Of a stretch of 64,000 nt of DNA, positions 3,001 through 27,000 are shown piece by piece. A program made the position numbers. The stretch's first letter is position 1; every line of letters starts with the position of its first letter. The DNA comes from Escherichia coli (GTDB taxonomy: Bacteria; Pseudomonadota; Gammaproteobacteria; Enterobacterales; Enterobacteriaceae), in NCBI RefSeq assembly GCF_017348835.2, contig NZ_CP072312.1; one strand, given 5' to 3'.

Positions 3001-6000
3001 TAGTATCCACCTGCAGCTGGCAGTCATTACTGGACAGGTTCTCACTGTCATCAGAATAAGTGAAACCATACGCACCGTACATTGCAGGATAGATGAAGCT
3101 AGACAAAGTGCCTTTGGGATCGTAATAACCCACCAGTGTCGTCACCGGAACGCCAAACTTCTCTGGCTTACGCGCTTCGCGGGTATTCACCACGTCACTT
3201 TCTTTCCAGGTCTGCCCATCGGAAACAAAGCTCTTCTTATATCCCTTGGAAATTATCTTTTCACCACCGTTGATAAACAGATGGCTGTTATAACCAGCTT
3301 CATGATCGAGTGTCAGAATACGGCCTTTATTCTCCGCGGAAGCTGCAGGGGCATGAATATCTCTAGTCCAGTTGCCGTCCGACATATGTACTTTGACAAT
3401 AGGATATTCTGCCATCATCTCAGCCATTTTGTTTTCACTGAGATCCCTGACAGAAGCAGTAATCTGCTCAAACCTGTCAATGGTGTGTTCATACGGTTCC
3501 ATTTTATGCTCATCGGCATTCCACTTGCTGAATCCAGTGGAGGAAAGGCTATCGAACACAGCTTTATTTTCAAAAAAGCGCTGGATGATAGCCGATGAAT
3601 TTGGCGTATACATTGTGAAACGGTTTGCGTCGGAGAAAGGACTGCCTCCCGCCATGGCGTCAAAGCCAAACGAGTGACCGTCGAACGGCTCCTGGCACTG
3701 CTCGTCAAGACAACTTTTCCGGTTTGTCTGGGCTGGATAAAAATTAGGTATGAAACGTTTTTTATCGCTGTCCCAGCCCCAAGTCGAGTTGATCTGGTCA
3801 GCGCTGCGATGCACGGACCCCCTGAAGCCACCCACATAATGACCAAGACCGAAGTTATGCCCGACTTCATGGCTGAATTCATTACCCAAGGTAGAGTCTA
3901 GGGTAACAATTCCCCCTCCACCGGAACCACCGTGCACCTGTACTCCATTGGAGTAGTTACCGCGGTTTGTATGTGCGGTCAGTTGCGCAGCCACATAAGG
4001 ATGGCTGCTTTCTCCTGAACCAGCAGTGCTGTTAATACCATAGTTGGCATTATCAATACCATGAGAGATCAGCTCCTTACCGATACTCTGTCGCATCGTG
4101 CCGCTATGCCATCCACCCTCACCGGGATCTGCATCTGTCAGCAATGTACCGGTAGGTAGCATGACTTCCTTCAGATGAAGTGGAGCATAATTGTTGACGA
4201 TCATACGACTGACCGGGATCGTCTGGAAATATTCCCGATGCGCCTCTTTGTCCTTGGCAAAATCAAAGCGCCCCCGGGGAGTGGTCAGCATCCCGATATC
4301 GATGGTATGCAACAACAGCTCCCCTGGTGCTCCAACATTGATGTCATTTAGGCTACCACTCAGGTTACCTTGTTTAATCACCAAGTTTAACCCGGGCACG
4401 ATCCAGTGCGCAGGCAGTTCAGCACTCCAGGTATGCTGAGCATAAGCGATTCGGTTATTCTCCAGCTCACCGGAGCGGAACCACTGACCATTTACATATT
4501 TGAACAGCAGGGTGTTACCCACCGAGAGCGTGACCTTTCGATCTCCATAAAAAACCGTTGAATTATAGCCGGCATACGAAACAAAGCGAACCATCTTACC
4601 TTCAAGCTCGGCTCCCTGCGGCAAATACATGTCTCTTATCCAACGACCATTTGCTGTCTGGATCTCCACCAGTGCATTATTTGCCAGATAGCTTTTAATA
4701 GAACTCCCGCTGGCATCACTGAGTTTGTTTACTTCAGCAACCGTATTAATGATCTTTTTCGTTCCATTCTGAGGAGTAAAATCGATACCATCAGCAGGAA
4801 CACCATCTAGGTGGTAGACGGTATCCGGTAGTGAGGAGGGAGGCGAAAGGGTTAACGTACCGAGAATTTTATCATTAGCATCTCGGGCTTCCACCTGAAC
4901 AGGTGTTTTATCATCAGCCTTCACCAGACGGACCAACAGCAAACTTTTCCGCAGGCTGGTCAGATGTTGTTGACTTTCCCCTTCTTTAGGATGGGCAGAT
5001 AAAATCTGGCTCTGTGCAAATTTCACCTCAGCGGCCAGTCCCCCCTGCAGATCATTTACGGGCTGGGTGGTATTGAAATAAATGGCTGAATTATTATCAG
5101 CAGCAGTTGCAGCAAATGCTCCCATCGCCAGAGAGGCAAGGATCATGCATGACAGATACTTTAATTTCATAAGTGTACTCCATCTTTCATTTTAGATTTC
5201 ATGCAGCCGGATATAATAGAAGTGTTAAATTTTATTTTTTCAGGAGTGATTCACTCATTCACCAGTGTTGATTTTTATAACACACTTATATCTACTTCAG
5301 AAAGATAACCTGATAAAAAATATTAACTCCGATCACATTCTTCTATATATTCCATCACAATATTTTGTTTAAAAAATGTTAAATTCACTATCTTCGTGAT
5401 AATTAACAAACAGGGTACAAAACCAGTAACTACAAAATACAATAAAAAAAATACATATCGCATTTTATCGAACATAGTGAACATTAGCTATTGCTATATT
5501 TTATTTTTTTGTATTAATCTCATTTAAAAAAAACAACCACAACGCGAAAACAATAAATAAATAACAAATAAAACTCATTTTTATTAAAATAAAAAACAAA
5601 AGAATATATCCTTAATCACAATATCCAGATGCTCCTCCCCACGTAATATAGACACAGGCCCAAGCGAGGTTCTGGTTTTCAAATTGTTCCGGACAGAGAC
5701 CGCCACACCAACTGTGCCGTCGTCACCGATTGTAATCACATTCGATCTGAACCGCCCCGGAAATCCTGGAGACTAAACTCCCTGAGAAAGAGGTAAACAG
5801 GATGACTAAAAATACTCGTTTTTCCCCCGAAGTCCGTCAGCGGGCGATTCGTATGGTTCTGGAAAGTCAGGATGAATATGACTCACAGTGGGCGGCAATT
5901 TGTTCCATTGCCCCAAAGATTGGCTGTACGCCGGAGACTCTGCGTGTCTGGGTTCGCCAGCATGAGCGGGATACCGGGAGTGGTGATGGTGGACTCACCA

Positions 6001-24000: not shown

Positions 24001-27000
24001 TCAGACATAAGTTCATGATGGTATTGCCTGAATATTTTTGATGCCAGTTTTTTATCTATCCCCCCTCCATGAAATTCAGCTATTTTTCCTGTTTTACTGC
24101 TCTCATCTAACCTTATTGCTCTGAATAACTCATAAGGATACTTTTTCCTCATGTATTTATATAACTCCATGTTGTGTCCAAATGGAGCTATCCAGTCAAT
24201 AAACCACTTTCTTTCTCCCGACATCCAGTCTTTTGCATACAAAGATGTTACATCATTTATATATTTTACCTCACATTCCAGATCTAAACTGGCCCAGCTA
24301 CAAAAAGCTACAGGAAGCTCATCCTTTATTAAGAGAGCAAATTGATTTGTCTGAATAGCAGGTATGACATTAATAGCAAAAACAGATAATGGCCATTTTT
24401 TATGCAGAGGAGAACAGGCCCATAGCCATGCAACCTTCCCCATGACGTCAAAAGCATTAGATTTCATAATGTTTAAATAAATAAGAAAACTCAGTAAATG
24501 TAAAGAATCCTATATAAAAGAACAGAAATTATATCTTTTTAAGCAAGAAGCATCTAAAAACAAAAAGCTACCGCAAGGAGAATCTCTCCCAACCAAAACA
24601 ACATTAGCGATAATAATATATTGCCTAAACATTCTTACACATATCACAGCTAAGTTATATTATAACACTCAGATGATTGATTTGTAAGATAACGTATGAT
24701 TTTCATATGAATAGCCACGTGACAAATGCCTTATTAAAGAGATTGTAAACAGAATACAGCAAACTATTTCAGTTACCGAAATGACGAGTTAATCAGTTTT
24801 GTTTACCCTGCAAACACAAAATCTAAACCTACACAGAAAAGCAAACTGAACCGCCCCGGAAATCCTGGAGACTAAACTCCCTGAGAAAGAGGTAAACAGG
24901 ATGACTAAAAATACTCGTTTTTCCCCCGAAGTCCGTCAGCGGGCGATTCGTATGGTTCTGGAAAGTCAGGATGAATATGACTCACAGTGGGCGGCAATTT
25001 GTTCCATTGCCCCAAAGATTGGCTGTACGCCGGAGACTCTGCGTGTCTGGGTTCGCCAGCATGAGCGGGATACCGGGAGTGGTGATGGTGGACTCACCAC
25101 CGCTGAACGTCAGCGTCTGAAAGAGCTGGAACGTGAAAATCGTGAACTGCGCCGCAGTAACGATATCCTTCGCCAGGCTTCCGCTTATTTTGCGAAGGCG
25201 GAGTTCGACCGCCTCTGGAAAAAATAATGCCACTGCTGGATAAGCTGCGTGAGCAGTACGGGGTCGGACCGGTATGCAGCGAACTGCATATTGCCCCGTC
25301 AACGTATTACCATTGTCAGCAACAGCGACATCATCCGGATAAACGCAGTGCCCGTGCGCAGCACGATGACTGGCTGAAGAAAGAGATACAGCGCGTATAC
25401 GATGAAAATCACCAGGTATACGGTGTGCGTAAAGTCTGGCGTCAGTTGTTACGGGAAGGTATCAGAGTGGCCAGATGCACTGTGGCACGTCTCATGGCAG
25501 TTATGGGACTTGCCGGTGTTCTCCGGGGTAAAAAGGTCCGCACTACCGTCAGCCGGAAAGCCGTTGCCGCATGCGACCGCGTAAACCGTCAGTTCGTGGC
25601 AGAACGTCCAGACCAGTTGTGGGTGGCTGATTTTACCTGGGTAAGCACATGGCAGGGCTTCGTTTATGTGGCGTTCATCATTGATGTGTTCGCCGGATAC
25701 ATCGTGGGATGGCAGGTCTCATCATCCATGGAAACAACATTCGTGCTGGATGCACTGGAGCAGGCGTTGTGGGCCCGTCGGCCGTCCGGCACAATCCATC
25801 ACAGTGATAAAGGTTCTCAGTATGTATCGCTGGCCTACACGCAGCGGCTTAAGGAAGCCGGATTACTGGCATCAACAGGGAGTACTGGCGACTCGTATGA
25901 CAACGCGATGGCTGAGAGCATCAATGGTCTTTACAAAGCGGAGGTAATACACCGTAAGAGCTGGAAAAACCGTGCAGAAGTGGAACTGGCCACACTAACG
26001 TGGGTGGACTGGTATAACAATCGACGATTGCTGGAAAGGCTGGGCCATATTCCTCCGGCAGAAGCAGAAAAAGCTTATTATGCTTCCATCGGAAATAATG
26101 ATCTGGCAGCCTGAGTTCACAGATAAAACACTCTCCAGGAAACCCGGGGCGGTTCATATTGCAAAAAATAAATTTTCCAGTTTCGTCCCTGATACAGGCT
26201 GGATTTGGATAATCCTGAATAACTGCCGTCAGATTTTCCAGCAGATCTATTTGACGAGCATGTTTTTGTTGAATACGATCCATCGGATACATAGGAACCT
26301 CCTCACAAAGGATTCTATGGACAGTCGATGCAGGGAGTTCACGTCTCCCTGCATCGGCGATTTTCAATTTCAAATTTTAACGTGGCATTAACCACGTAAT
26401 TAATATACTAATTATCTTTCGTACTGTTACCTTTTTAAATCATAAAAACTCTGATATTTGAACGAAGTCAAATTTCTTTTATTCATCATCATTTTTTAGA
26501 AAAAATCGTTCCATCTCAGATGATACCTTCTCCCTGATATCTTCAACCATATTGGCATATTCAAACTTTGGATTTCCGGAGACATGAGGACTGAGAGACT
26601 CAATACCCAAAATTTTCGCTACTGATGATTGTGTTTTTACAACGCATTCAAGAAGCAATTTATTAAACTCAGTCTGATTAAATGCAGACTCTTTACGCTC
26701 CATCTGAGCCTCATGTACACGAAGCCCCAGTTCAAGAAGCATTGAAGCTGTTGCTGAAAAACTGACATCTTTTTCCCTTGCCCCTTCCTGTCGACGCTTC
26801 TCAATAATCGCATTTATTTTTTCATAGGCATCATTGCTGATATACAGGTTCACCTTAGCCATTAAAGATTACCTTTTTTGAACATAAAATAAAGTTAATT
26901 TAGAAACACTAAAATTCATAATGCAAACAGGGACGCACCGCTAGCAGTGCCCCTGGCGGTATCCTATAAAGAAACACACCGCGCCGCTAGCAGCACCCCT

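Follow-up and report, generated by a model that had tools for sequence, protein, structure and literature searches.

IS629 copies and virulence modules in the window

The window, meaning the whole 64,000-nucleotide stretch analysed here, represents a pO103-type IncFIB virulence plasmid of enterohaemorrhagic-type E. coli and carries the RepB (FIB) backbone, the stcE-etp, ecf and ehx modules and a truncated F transfer region (Table 1). The modules are 99.7-100% identical to their family counterparts, and the backbone at 26157-51000 (24.8 kb) is 100.0% identical to pO103-type plasmids over the ~95% that aligns. Positions 15479-64000 (48.5 kb) are collinear with, and near-identical to, pF2_18C_FIB (NZ_CP043544.1), from which the unique DNA of the whole window differs by 4 substitutions, with a few 1-bp indels added in the collinear stretch.

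Table 1. Features around the IS629 copies (a slash separates left and right flanks)
Feature	Position	Strand	Description
stcE-etp segment	1-5747	-	etpD', etpC, stcE and 577 bp upstream
Copy A	5748-7057	+	Intact IS629/IS1203, OrfB variant 1; flanks ATC/CCC, without duplication
ecf/lpxM module and ISEc8 tnpA remnant	7058-13764	+	Module 8476-13322; remnant 13415-13764, cut by C
Copy C, right-end fragment	13765-14173	-	IS positions 902-1310; outer flank CTC
Copy B	14174-15483	+	Intact, OrfB variant 2, nested in C; flanks TCC/TCC
Copy C, left-end fragment	15484-16387	-	Duplicated TCC and IS positions 1-901; outer flank CAA, cmi side
cmi, colicin M remnant, then ehxDBAC	16388-24846	-	ehxDBAC 17341-24467
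Copy D	24847-26156	+	Intact, OrfB variant 2; flanks AAC/TAT, without duplication
traJ 5' remnant	26157-26292	-	Cut by right end of D; one edge of traJ-to-traH gap
traH 3' remnant	63148-64000	-	Runs off window; other edge of traJ-to-traH gap

Four IS629 copies punctuate these modules, with A lying between the stcE and ecf upstream regions and D linking the ehxC upstream region with the truncated traJ. Each of the four measures exactly 1310 bp and their alignment needs no gaps; copy C is recovered as a gap-free 1310-bp element once B and one TCC are taken out. Copy A is 95.9% identical, end to end, to the copy labelled IS629 in pO157 Sakai (the reference here rather than the ISfinder sequence), and with a cut-off of 95% nucleotide identity it belongs to this element; the authors of the pF2_18C_FIB paper name these copies IS1203, an IS629 variant. 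The 108-aa OrfA matches PF01527 (HTH_Tnp_1), the 295-aa OrfB matches PF00665 (rve, DDE) and HTH_21, and the pseudoknot of the programmed -1 frameshift that joins the two frames (Rfam ALIL) scores 116-120 bits in each of the four copies (6083-6199 in A). The termini of A are imperfect inverted repeats, matching at all 13 terminal bases and at 22 of the first 25.

Target-site duplications and the age of the junctions

The initial annotation stated that three IS629 copies lack a target-site duplication and only the nested copy keeps one, and this is borne out with exact coordinates: the flanks of A, D and C as a whole (CTC/CAA) are unmatched, and B is bounded by TCC at 14171-14173, the last three bases of the C right-end fragment and the target of B, and again at 15484-15486. 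A 3-bp flank match is expected by chance once in 64, the strain-specific insertions have a perfect 3-bp duplication in three of three cases (B in the window, and IS_d with ATA and IS_f with GTC in pO103 12009), and none of the module-border copies compared in the window and its relatives has one, so the pattern is not due to chance.

The proposal that swapping flanks between copies might restore matching duplications fared poorly. Among A, B, C and D, with 3- and 4-bp flanks in direct and reverse-complement orientation, only B matches, and widening the comparison to all IS629 copies of four relatives recreated no 3- or 4-bp duplication. For five of the six bare junctions (both ends of A and of D, and the CTC side of C), the IS-free relatives pO55, pO157 and C325 supplied the native sequence. 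Next to A, the stcE-etp segment ends in ...CATTCGATC, which continues natively as AGTAGTCC in pO55, and pO157 homology to the ecf segment starts at the very base where A ends, the native upstream sequence there being ...CTATTATA. Homology of pO157 and the C325 plasmid to the ehx segment stops at the base where D begins (native continuation CTCTCCTG), and intact traJ in pO55 reads ...GAAACAGCG/TATTG across the D junction point; RefSeq annotates the product in relatives as 'TraJ, missing C-terminus'. At these five junctions the partner flanks are absent from the window and from every family plasmid fetched, and duplications therefore appear to have been lost by one-sided deletion or replacement, beyond mere reshuffling; we infer that native DNA on one side of each border copy was deleted or replaced.

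Relatives have five of the six bare junctions as well, so most duplication losses are old and predate this plasmid. The outer CTC junction of C also occurs in pO103 12009, 2011C-4315, pO45-1 and pF2_18C_FIB, both flanks of D occur in pF2_18C_FIB (66132-67441), and the left junction of D is found in 24 PLSDB plasmids. The earlier attribution of the missing duplications to recombination between IS copies thus stands in part: the flank pairs of A and D fit inversions, but the absence of the five partner flanks from the fetched family plasmids and the age of five junctions speak for losses beyond it. In this family, an absent target duplication mostly marks old shared events rather than recent rearrangement.

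The loss of traY-traF had also been ascribed to IS recombination. An IS629 right end lies at either edge of the traJ-to-traH gap: relatives have one 35 bp beyond the point matching the window end (pO103 34333 is the equivalent of window 64000, and IS_c, with the flank CCCGGACG, ends at 34298). The gap is common to the whole family, however, and any cause assigned to it is surmise.

Inversions, copy mosaicism and alternative readings

Family members differ in how stcE-etp, ecf-ehx and the tra/rep backbone are ordered and oriented, and the changes fall exactly at inverted IS629 copies. The gene orders number at least three (pO103/pO45-1, pF2_18C_FIB and the window), and every break between them falls exactly at such copies, in agreement with the initial suggestion that recombination between IS copies shuffled stcE-etp, ecf and ehx. 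A single inversion bounded by two inverted IS629 copies separates pF2_18C_FIB from 2011C-4315 and pO103. The stcE-etp segment of the window is in turn inverted relative to pF2_18C_FIB, window 1-7057 corresponding to pF2_18C_FIB 33686-26629 on the opposite strand and 5747-12307 to 48381-54941, so that the break lies exactly at A. The flank pair of A is the one expected from one inversion of a pF2_18C_FIB-like arrangement, in which the left end of the ecf-side copy is preceded by ...TATTTCAGGATACC, and the flank pair of D is already present in pF2_18C_FIB. The reciprocal junction and reciprocal copy of the stcE-etp inversion lie outside the window, leaving half of the exchange visible.

We consider it probable that the pO103-type IncFIB EHEC plasmid is present in the window as a structural isomer, shaped by exchange between IS629 copies at module borders. 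IS629/IS1203 copies lie at the borders of stcE-etp, ecf, ehx and the transfer-region remains. In such a history they would have lost their duplications long ago and thereafter acted as mobile stretches of homology 1.3 kb long; a crossover joining two inverted copies would flip the DNA between them and swap their flanks. The steps are visible in the family: first the order in pO103 12009, 2011C-4315 and pO45-1; then that of pF2_18C_FIB, one inversion away, with which the flank pair of D (ehxC upstream and traJ') arose; and then the window, where a second inversion, using the IS629 copies upstream of stcE and upstream of ecf, flipped the stcE-etp segment, created the flank pair of A and probably made A chimeric.

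The sequences of the copies are consistent with such exchange. Over 1310 nt, A and C differ at 9 positions and B and D at 4; A differs from both B and D at 27, and C from both at 30. The initial annotation had sorted the copies into two variants, and the OrfB motifs are as it gave them (STWRGF/TERLKEAK in A and C, STWQGF/TQRLKEAG in B and D), the OrfB variants being about 2.1-2.3% apart, but the split is valid only at IS positions 808-1043. Across 24 copies from five plasmids, 65 variable sites are arranged as mosaics, in which sites near the ends mostly track the flank and the interiors have been exchanged. Over positions 1-807 A has exactly the sequence of e-type copies, CTAT at 632-644 included; over 808-1310 it is identical to the a-type copies found in 12009, 2011C-4315 and pO45-1. 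Being e-type on the left and a-type on the right, A may be the chimera expected from a crossover within the element; the ecf-side copy of pF2_18C_FIB likewise has CTAT at 632-644, which allows another reading of the chimerism. The copy at site C is variant 1 in the window and pF2_18C_FIB and variant 2 in 12009, 2011C-4315 and pO45-1, a change that, judged from the variable sites, indicates gene conversion or copy replacement; non-crossover exchange of this kind would also account for the mosaics. The D-equivalent of pF2_18C_FIB is closer to copy B (2 differing sites) than D itself is (4 sites). None of the four family plasmids fetched in full (pO103 12009, 2011C-4315, pO45-1 and pF2_18C_FIB) has B, which is therefore a recent transposition, a fresh copy-out-paste-in event into C with the duplication kept.

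One junction departs from this scheme. To the left of A the window reads GATC/IS, whereas all 20 PLSDB plasmids with this junction read GATCAG/IS, the AG being native; the junction was therefore not kept to the base but is 2 bp shorter. This loss counts against plain recombination because exchange inside the IS should leave the junction unaltered, and it may reflect a separate event or a sequencing error.

The arrangement stcE-IS-ecf also rests on one assembly, being found in none of 5426 complete E. coli genomes and in no PLSDB plasmid; the only PLSDB plasmid covering at least 80% of window 1-25000 is C325 (NZ_CP124820.1), whose layout is different and ISEc8/IS91-bounded. This uniqueness would fit an assembly or isomer artefact, with stcE-etp misoriented between 1.3-kb inverted repeats or both orientations present in culture. 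Also in keeping with an artefact, the window is an outlier at four 1-bp indels (5533, 7532, 7556 and 51983), three in homopolymer runs and one frameshifting traI, which suggests residual sequencing errors. On the other side, the AG loss is not a homopolymer error, the window contains a well-formed private event (B with its exact 3-bp duplication and C perfectly restored), and a like IS629-bounded inversion separates two independently finished plasmids, the Sanger-era pO103 12009 and the PacBio/Illumina pF2_18C_FIB. We regard an artefact as unlikely on balance. If there were one, the AG loss and the mosaics in the window's own copies would be consensus or polishing errors at repeat edges.

The missing AG could instead reflect the transposase. 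A second IS629 might have inserted 2 bp from the resident left end (target ATC), followed by exchange or deletion, or 'sloppy' strand transfer with the IS-excision enhancer might have trimmed the flank. The exact position of the IS629 end at a given native site does shift slightly from plasmid to plasmid: GATCAG/ and GATC/ upstream of stcE, AAACCT/ (2011C-4315) and AAAC/ upstream of ehxC, and, upstream of ecf, /TATACCCC (C325, opposite orientation) and /CCCC. The reported action of IS629 transposase with its excision enhancer, namely excisions and larger deletions through strand transfer to non-cognate targets, fits, as do the partner flanks missing from the fetched family plasmids at the five junctions compared. 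The tandem intermediate is hypothetical here, though, and copy-out-paste-in elements are not expected to invert DNA alone. Moreover, the C325 copy is oppositely oriented and that of 2011C-4315 is of a different IS629 type, so that the two have the appearance of separate insertions into a favoured site, which weakens flank trimming as a general rule. A transposase-driven origin of the junctions is accordingly given only a slim chance. One-sided IS-adjacent deletions of this sort would also explain all the missing duplications.

Abutted IS629 ends (a right end, 0-12 bp, then a left end) were sought in a metagenome scan, which returned 7 matches, all of them to other IS3-family elements and none to IS629; five of the seven have a 3-bp spacer. 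The scan has no bearing on the 2-bp offset. That the repeated offsets (2 bp upstream of stcE, 2 bp upstream of ehxC and 4 bp upstream of ecf) express a specific IS629 behaviour, whether insertion next to a resident end with tandem collapse or trimming by transposase and excision enhancer, strikes us as improbable; if true, IS-bounded modules would slowly lose their edges at each rearrangement.

Finally, A and D are direct repeats bracketing ecf-ehx, and the net change from pO103 12009 is a block moved beside the IS629 upstream of stcE, but movement of A-ecf-C-ehx-D as one unit, whether a composite transposon or a circle that excised and re-entered another IS629, is highly improbable given that the outer flanks (ATC and TAT) show no duplication around the unit and that pF2_18C_FIB is an exact one-inversion intermediate, sharing the IS30 and near-identical sequence, which makes a two-inversion path more economical. 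Single-step block transposition from pO103 was dropped on account of the same intermediate.

The comparison shows pO103-type virulence plasmids in several IS629-bounded orientation isomers, so that gene order says little about relatedness among them. IS-flanked segments and IS-edge bases in single assemblies call for read-level confirmation. The practical value of these observations is modest, and they open no new mechanism.

Relation to known plasmids and IS629 elements

Published work already covers both the IS-mediated mosaicism of EHEC plasmids and the sequence types of IS629, and IS629 shuffling has been described for this plasmid family. As in IS629/IS1203, the terminal inverted repeats of the window copies start with TGAACCGCCCCGG; IS629/IS1203, an IS3-family element, transposes by copy-out-paste-in and makes a 3-bp duplication, whereas three of the four copies here are without one. 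Several IS629 sequence types were described earlier (PMC3271280), and the window copies are mosaics of types rather than clean types.

The plasmid pF2_18C_FIB, from the E. coli ST302 strain F2_18C isolated from a pig in Australia, has the D junctions, the IS30 insertion site and the variant-1 copy at site C in common with the window. Unlike the window, it has stcE-etp in the opposite orientation, lacks the nested B and keeps the AG at the stcE junction, and its ecf-side IS differs at variable sites within 141-210 and 1189-1205.

The group formed by pO103 (NC_013354.1, O103:H2 12009), 2011C-4315 plasmid unnamed1 and pO45-1 has the window's modules and backbone at 99.7-100% identity and the same bare junctions (IS/CCCC-ecf, both sides of C, AAAC/IS upstream of ehxC and IS/TAT-traJ'), but stands two IS629-bounded inversions apart and carries a variant-2 copy at site C. 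Unlike the window, pO103 12009 has additional IS629 copies with duplications (ATA in traD, and GTC), and 2011C-4315 has a katP module.

The mosaic EHEC plasmid pO157 (NC_002128.1) likewise has IS elements at module borders, and its ecf and ehx modules are 99.5-99.7% identical to those of the window, but it shows native, IS-free sequence where A and D adjoin these modules. Its gene order, ecf-stcE-etp-ehx in a single direction, is unlike that of the window, its stcE-etp is only about 87% identical, and the identity between its IS629 copies and A is about 95.9%.

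IS629 copies and their sequence variants

Repeat search and direct reading of the window recovered four 1310-bp IS629/IS1203 copies (A to D, with B nested in inverted C), at the positions given in the initial annotation and with a duplication in B alone. Copy C becomes a gap-free 1310 bp once B and one TCC are taken out. Each copy encodes a 108-aa OrfA (PF01527) and a 295-aa OrfB with an rve DDE core and carries an ALIL frameshift pseudoknot, and the imperfect terminal repeats begin TGAACCGCCCCGG; the elements agree with IS3/IS629 in every feature that could be tested. Copy A is 95.9% identical to the IS629 copy annotated in pO157 Sakai.

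IS629 copies and other mobile-element features of the window
Feature	Coordinates	Strand	3-bp flanks (left, right)
Copy A	5748-7057	+	ATC, CCC
ISEc8 (IS66-family) tnpA remnant	13415-13764		
Copy C, split by B	13765-14173 and 15484-16387	inverted	CTC, CAA
Copy B	14174-15483	+	TCC, TCC
Colicin M immunity gene and colicin M gene fragment	16388-17147		
Copy D	24847-26156	+	AAC, TAT
IS30	46241-47461	+	

Nine sites separate A from C and four separate B from D, with 27-30 between the two pairs, and the OrfB motifs divide the copies exactly as had been listed. At least three IS629 sequence types, 55-60 bp apart, have been described (PMC3271280). Among the types seen in family copies (a-type, on the ecf side, and e-type), B is nearest to the D/e type, and we judge it a recent transposition because it is missing from all four family plasmids fetched in full: pO103 12009 (NC_013354.1), 2011C-4315 plasmid unnamed1, pO45-1 and pF2_18C_FIB (NZ_CP043544.1).

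Probable inversions and exchange between copies

Naming the segments S1 (stcE-etp), S2 (ecf-C-ehx) and S3 (rep/tra backbone), pO103 12009, 2011C-4315 and pO45-1 have the order S1(+) IS(+) S2(+) IS(+) S3(+) IS(-). One inversion, bounded by two inverted IS629 copies, separates pF2_18C_FIB from this order and connects the ehxC upstream region with traJ' via one IS, the window's copy D; the window shows a second inversion relative to pF2_18C_FIB. Because window 1-7057 aligns in reverse to pF2_18C_FIB 33686-26629, with the match resuming at pF2_18C_FIB 48381 for window 5747-12307, the stcE-etp segment would have been inverted, with the IS629 copies upstream of stcE and of ecf as the boundaries, producing the window order and, with it, A's mismatched flanks. 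Both A flanks together occur in 0 of 5426 complete E. coli genomes and in no PLSDB plasmid, so this isomer is new to these collections.

Alignment of 24 IS629 copies from the window and the four relatives revealed 65 variable sites in a mosaic arrangement, in which sites near the ends mostly go with the adjacent flank and interiors are exchanged; one right-end pattern beside traH', and another beside katP, reappear in different plasmids. From position 1 to 807, CTAT at 632-644 included, copy A does not differ from e-type copies, and from 808 to 1310 it does not differ from the a-type copies that 12009, 2011C-4315 and pO45-1 carry on the ecf side, a composition that a crossover between IS positions 645 and 807 during inversion would yield exactly. 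At the copy C site, variant 1 is found in the window and pF2_18C_FIB and variant 2 in the other three plasmids, with the same site and flanks, which at the level of sequence indicates gene conversion or copy replacement.

The main rival is an assembly with stcE-etp placed in the wrong orientation, or with both orientations mixed. The window alone departs from all relatives at four 1-bp indels (5533, 7532, 7556 and 51983; three in homopolymer runs), and these are therefore probably residual sequencing errors in the assembly, or else recent slippage mutations; that at 51983 frameshifts traI into ORFs of 1604 and 169 aa, versus 1756 aa elsewhere. We regard a misassembled orientation as unlikely, and inversion between IS629 copies as probably the correct account of the gene order and of how A and D acquired their flank pairs, and the best explanation overall.

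Lost duplications and shifted ends

Recombination between copies, from which the initial annotation would derive the missing duplications, shuffled gene order and missing transfer genes, probably explains gene order and the A and D flank pairs, and may also lie behind the traJ-to-traH gap. It leaves the lost duplications unaccounted for: swapping flanks, whether between A, C and D or across every copy in the family, rebuilds no 3- or 4-bp duplication. IS-free relatives supplied native sequence for five of the six bare junctions: the continuations AGTAGTCC upstream of stcE (pO55), CTCTCCTG upstream of ehxC (pO157, NC_002128.1, and the C325 plasmid, NZ_CP124820.1) and GCAGAGGA at the ISEc8 remnant (C325), and the preceding sequences ...CTATTATA upstream of ecf (pO157) and ...GAAACAGCG at traJ (pO55). 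Since none of these five partner sequences occurs anywhere in the window or family plasmids, the duplications appear to have been lost through one-sided deletion or replacement, beyond mere redistribution. Relatives share all but one of the six bare junctions, so the loss is mostly far older than the window plasmid; the ecf-side junction is found in dozens of EHEC plasmids and the ehxC-side junction in 24 PLSDB plasmids.

Copy C truncates the ISEc8 remnant, and the colicin M genes lie on its other side, before ehxD. Homology to pO157 and C325 on this cmi/ehxD side begins only at 17148, so C lies between two unrelated scraps. The traJ-to-traH gap, present in the whole family, has two IS629 right ends as borders, and an IS629-mediated origin would be a reasonable account.

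IS629 ends are also offset across plasmids by 2, 2 and 4 bp at three native sites, upstream of stcE, ehxC and ecf. Left of A (5746-5748) the sequence meeting the IS is ...CATTCGATC, versus ...CATTCGATCAG in 20 of 20 PLSDB plasmids having the stcE-upstream junction (GATC versus GATCAG, a 2-bp offset). The missing AG is native sequence (pO55), which a crossover inside the IS should leave intact; a sequencing error is a possible and more mundane option, but AG is not a homopolymer. 2011C-4315 (62889-62891) reads AAACCT before the IS where others read AAAC (window 24845-24847), and C325 (~12411) has an IS629 end in opposite orientation 4 bp from A's right junction (window 7057-7061), the ecf-upstream site continuing TATACCCC in C325 versus CCCC. 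Such offsets may reflect repeated insertion at preferred spots, insertion beside a resident end followed by tandem-pair collapse, or flank trimming in aberrant transposition; more extensive deletions via 'sloppy' strand transfer have been reported for the IS629 transposase with excision enhancer. Abutted right-end/left-end junctions in seven metagenome contigs all belonged to other IS3-family elements, none to IS629; they have the same 13-bp termini and, in five of seven, the 3-bp spacer expected of circle junctions or tandem copies.

Relationship to known plasmids

Over the ~95% of the backbone (26157-51000) that aligns to pO103-type plasmids of O103:H2 and related strains, identity is 100.0%, and by sequence the window plasmid belongs to the pO103-type FIB family. 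The closest relative found, pF2_18C_FIB, is collinear with window 15479-64000, including D and both its flanks, and shows only 4 substitutions across all unique DNA in the window, plus a few 1-bp indels in the collinear stretch. An intact IS30 (1221 bp, 383-aa transposase, 2-bp duplication AC) lies inside an older IS3-family remnant. It occupies the same site in pF2_18C_FIB, whereas pO103 12009 and pO45-1 lack it and carry, 15 bp away, an IS629 flanked by the duplication GTC; in 2011C-4315 the site is empty. pO103 12009 carries an additional IS629 (39558-40867, duplication ATA) between traT and traD; the site (58772-58777 in the window) is empty in the window and the other three relatives. Inside traD, alignments overlap or skip at 57769-57784 (16 bp, versus ~63 bp in pO103 and pF2_18C_FIB), suggesting a short-repeat length difference. 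Between its etp side and the IS629 next to ecf, pF2_18C_FIB holds an additional RepFIIA replicon and an IS91 (43973-48251); the part that could show these, or katP, falls outside the 64,000 nt. IS elements at module borders are reportedly described as well in the first papers on pO157 and on non-O157 EHEC plasmids, and the kind of event seen here is already known.
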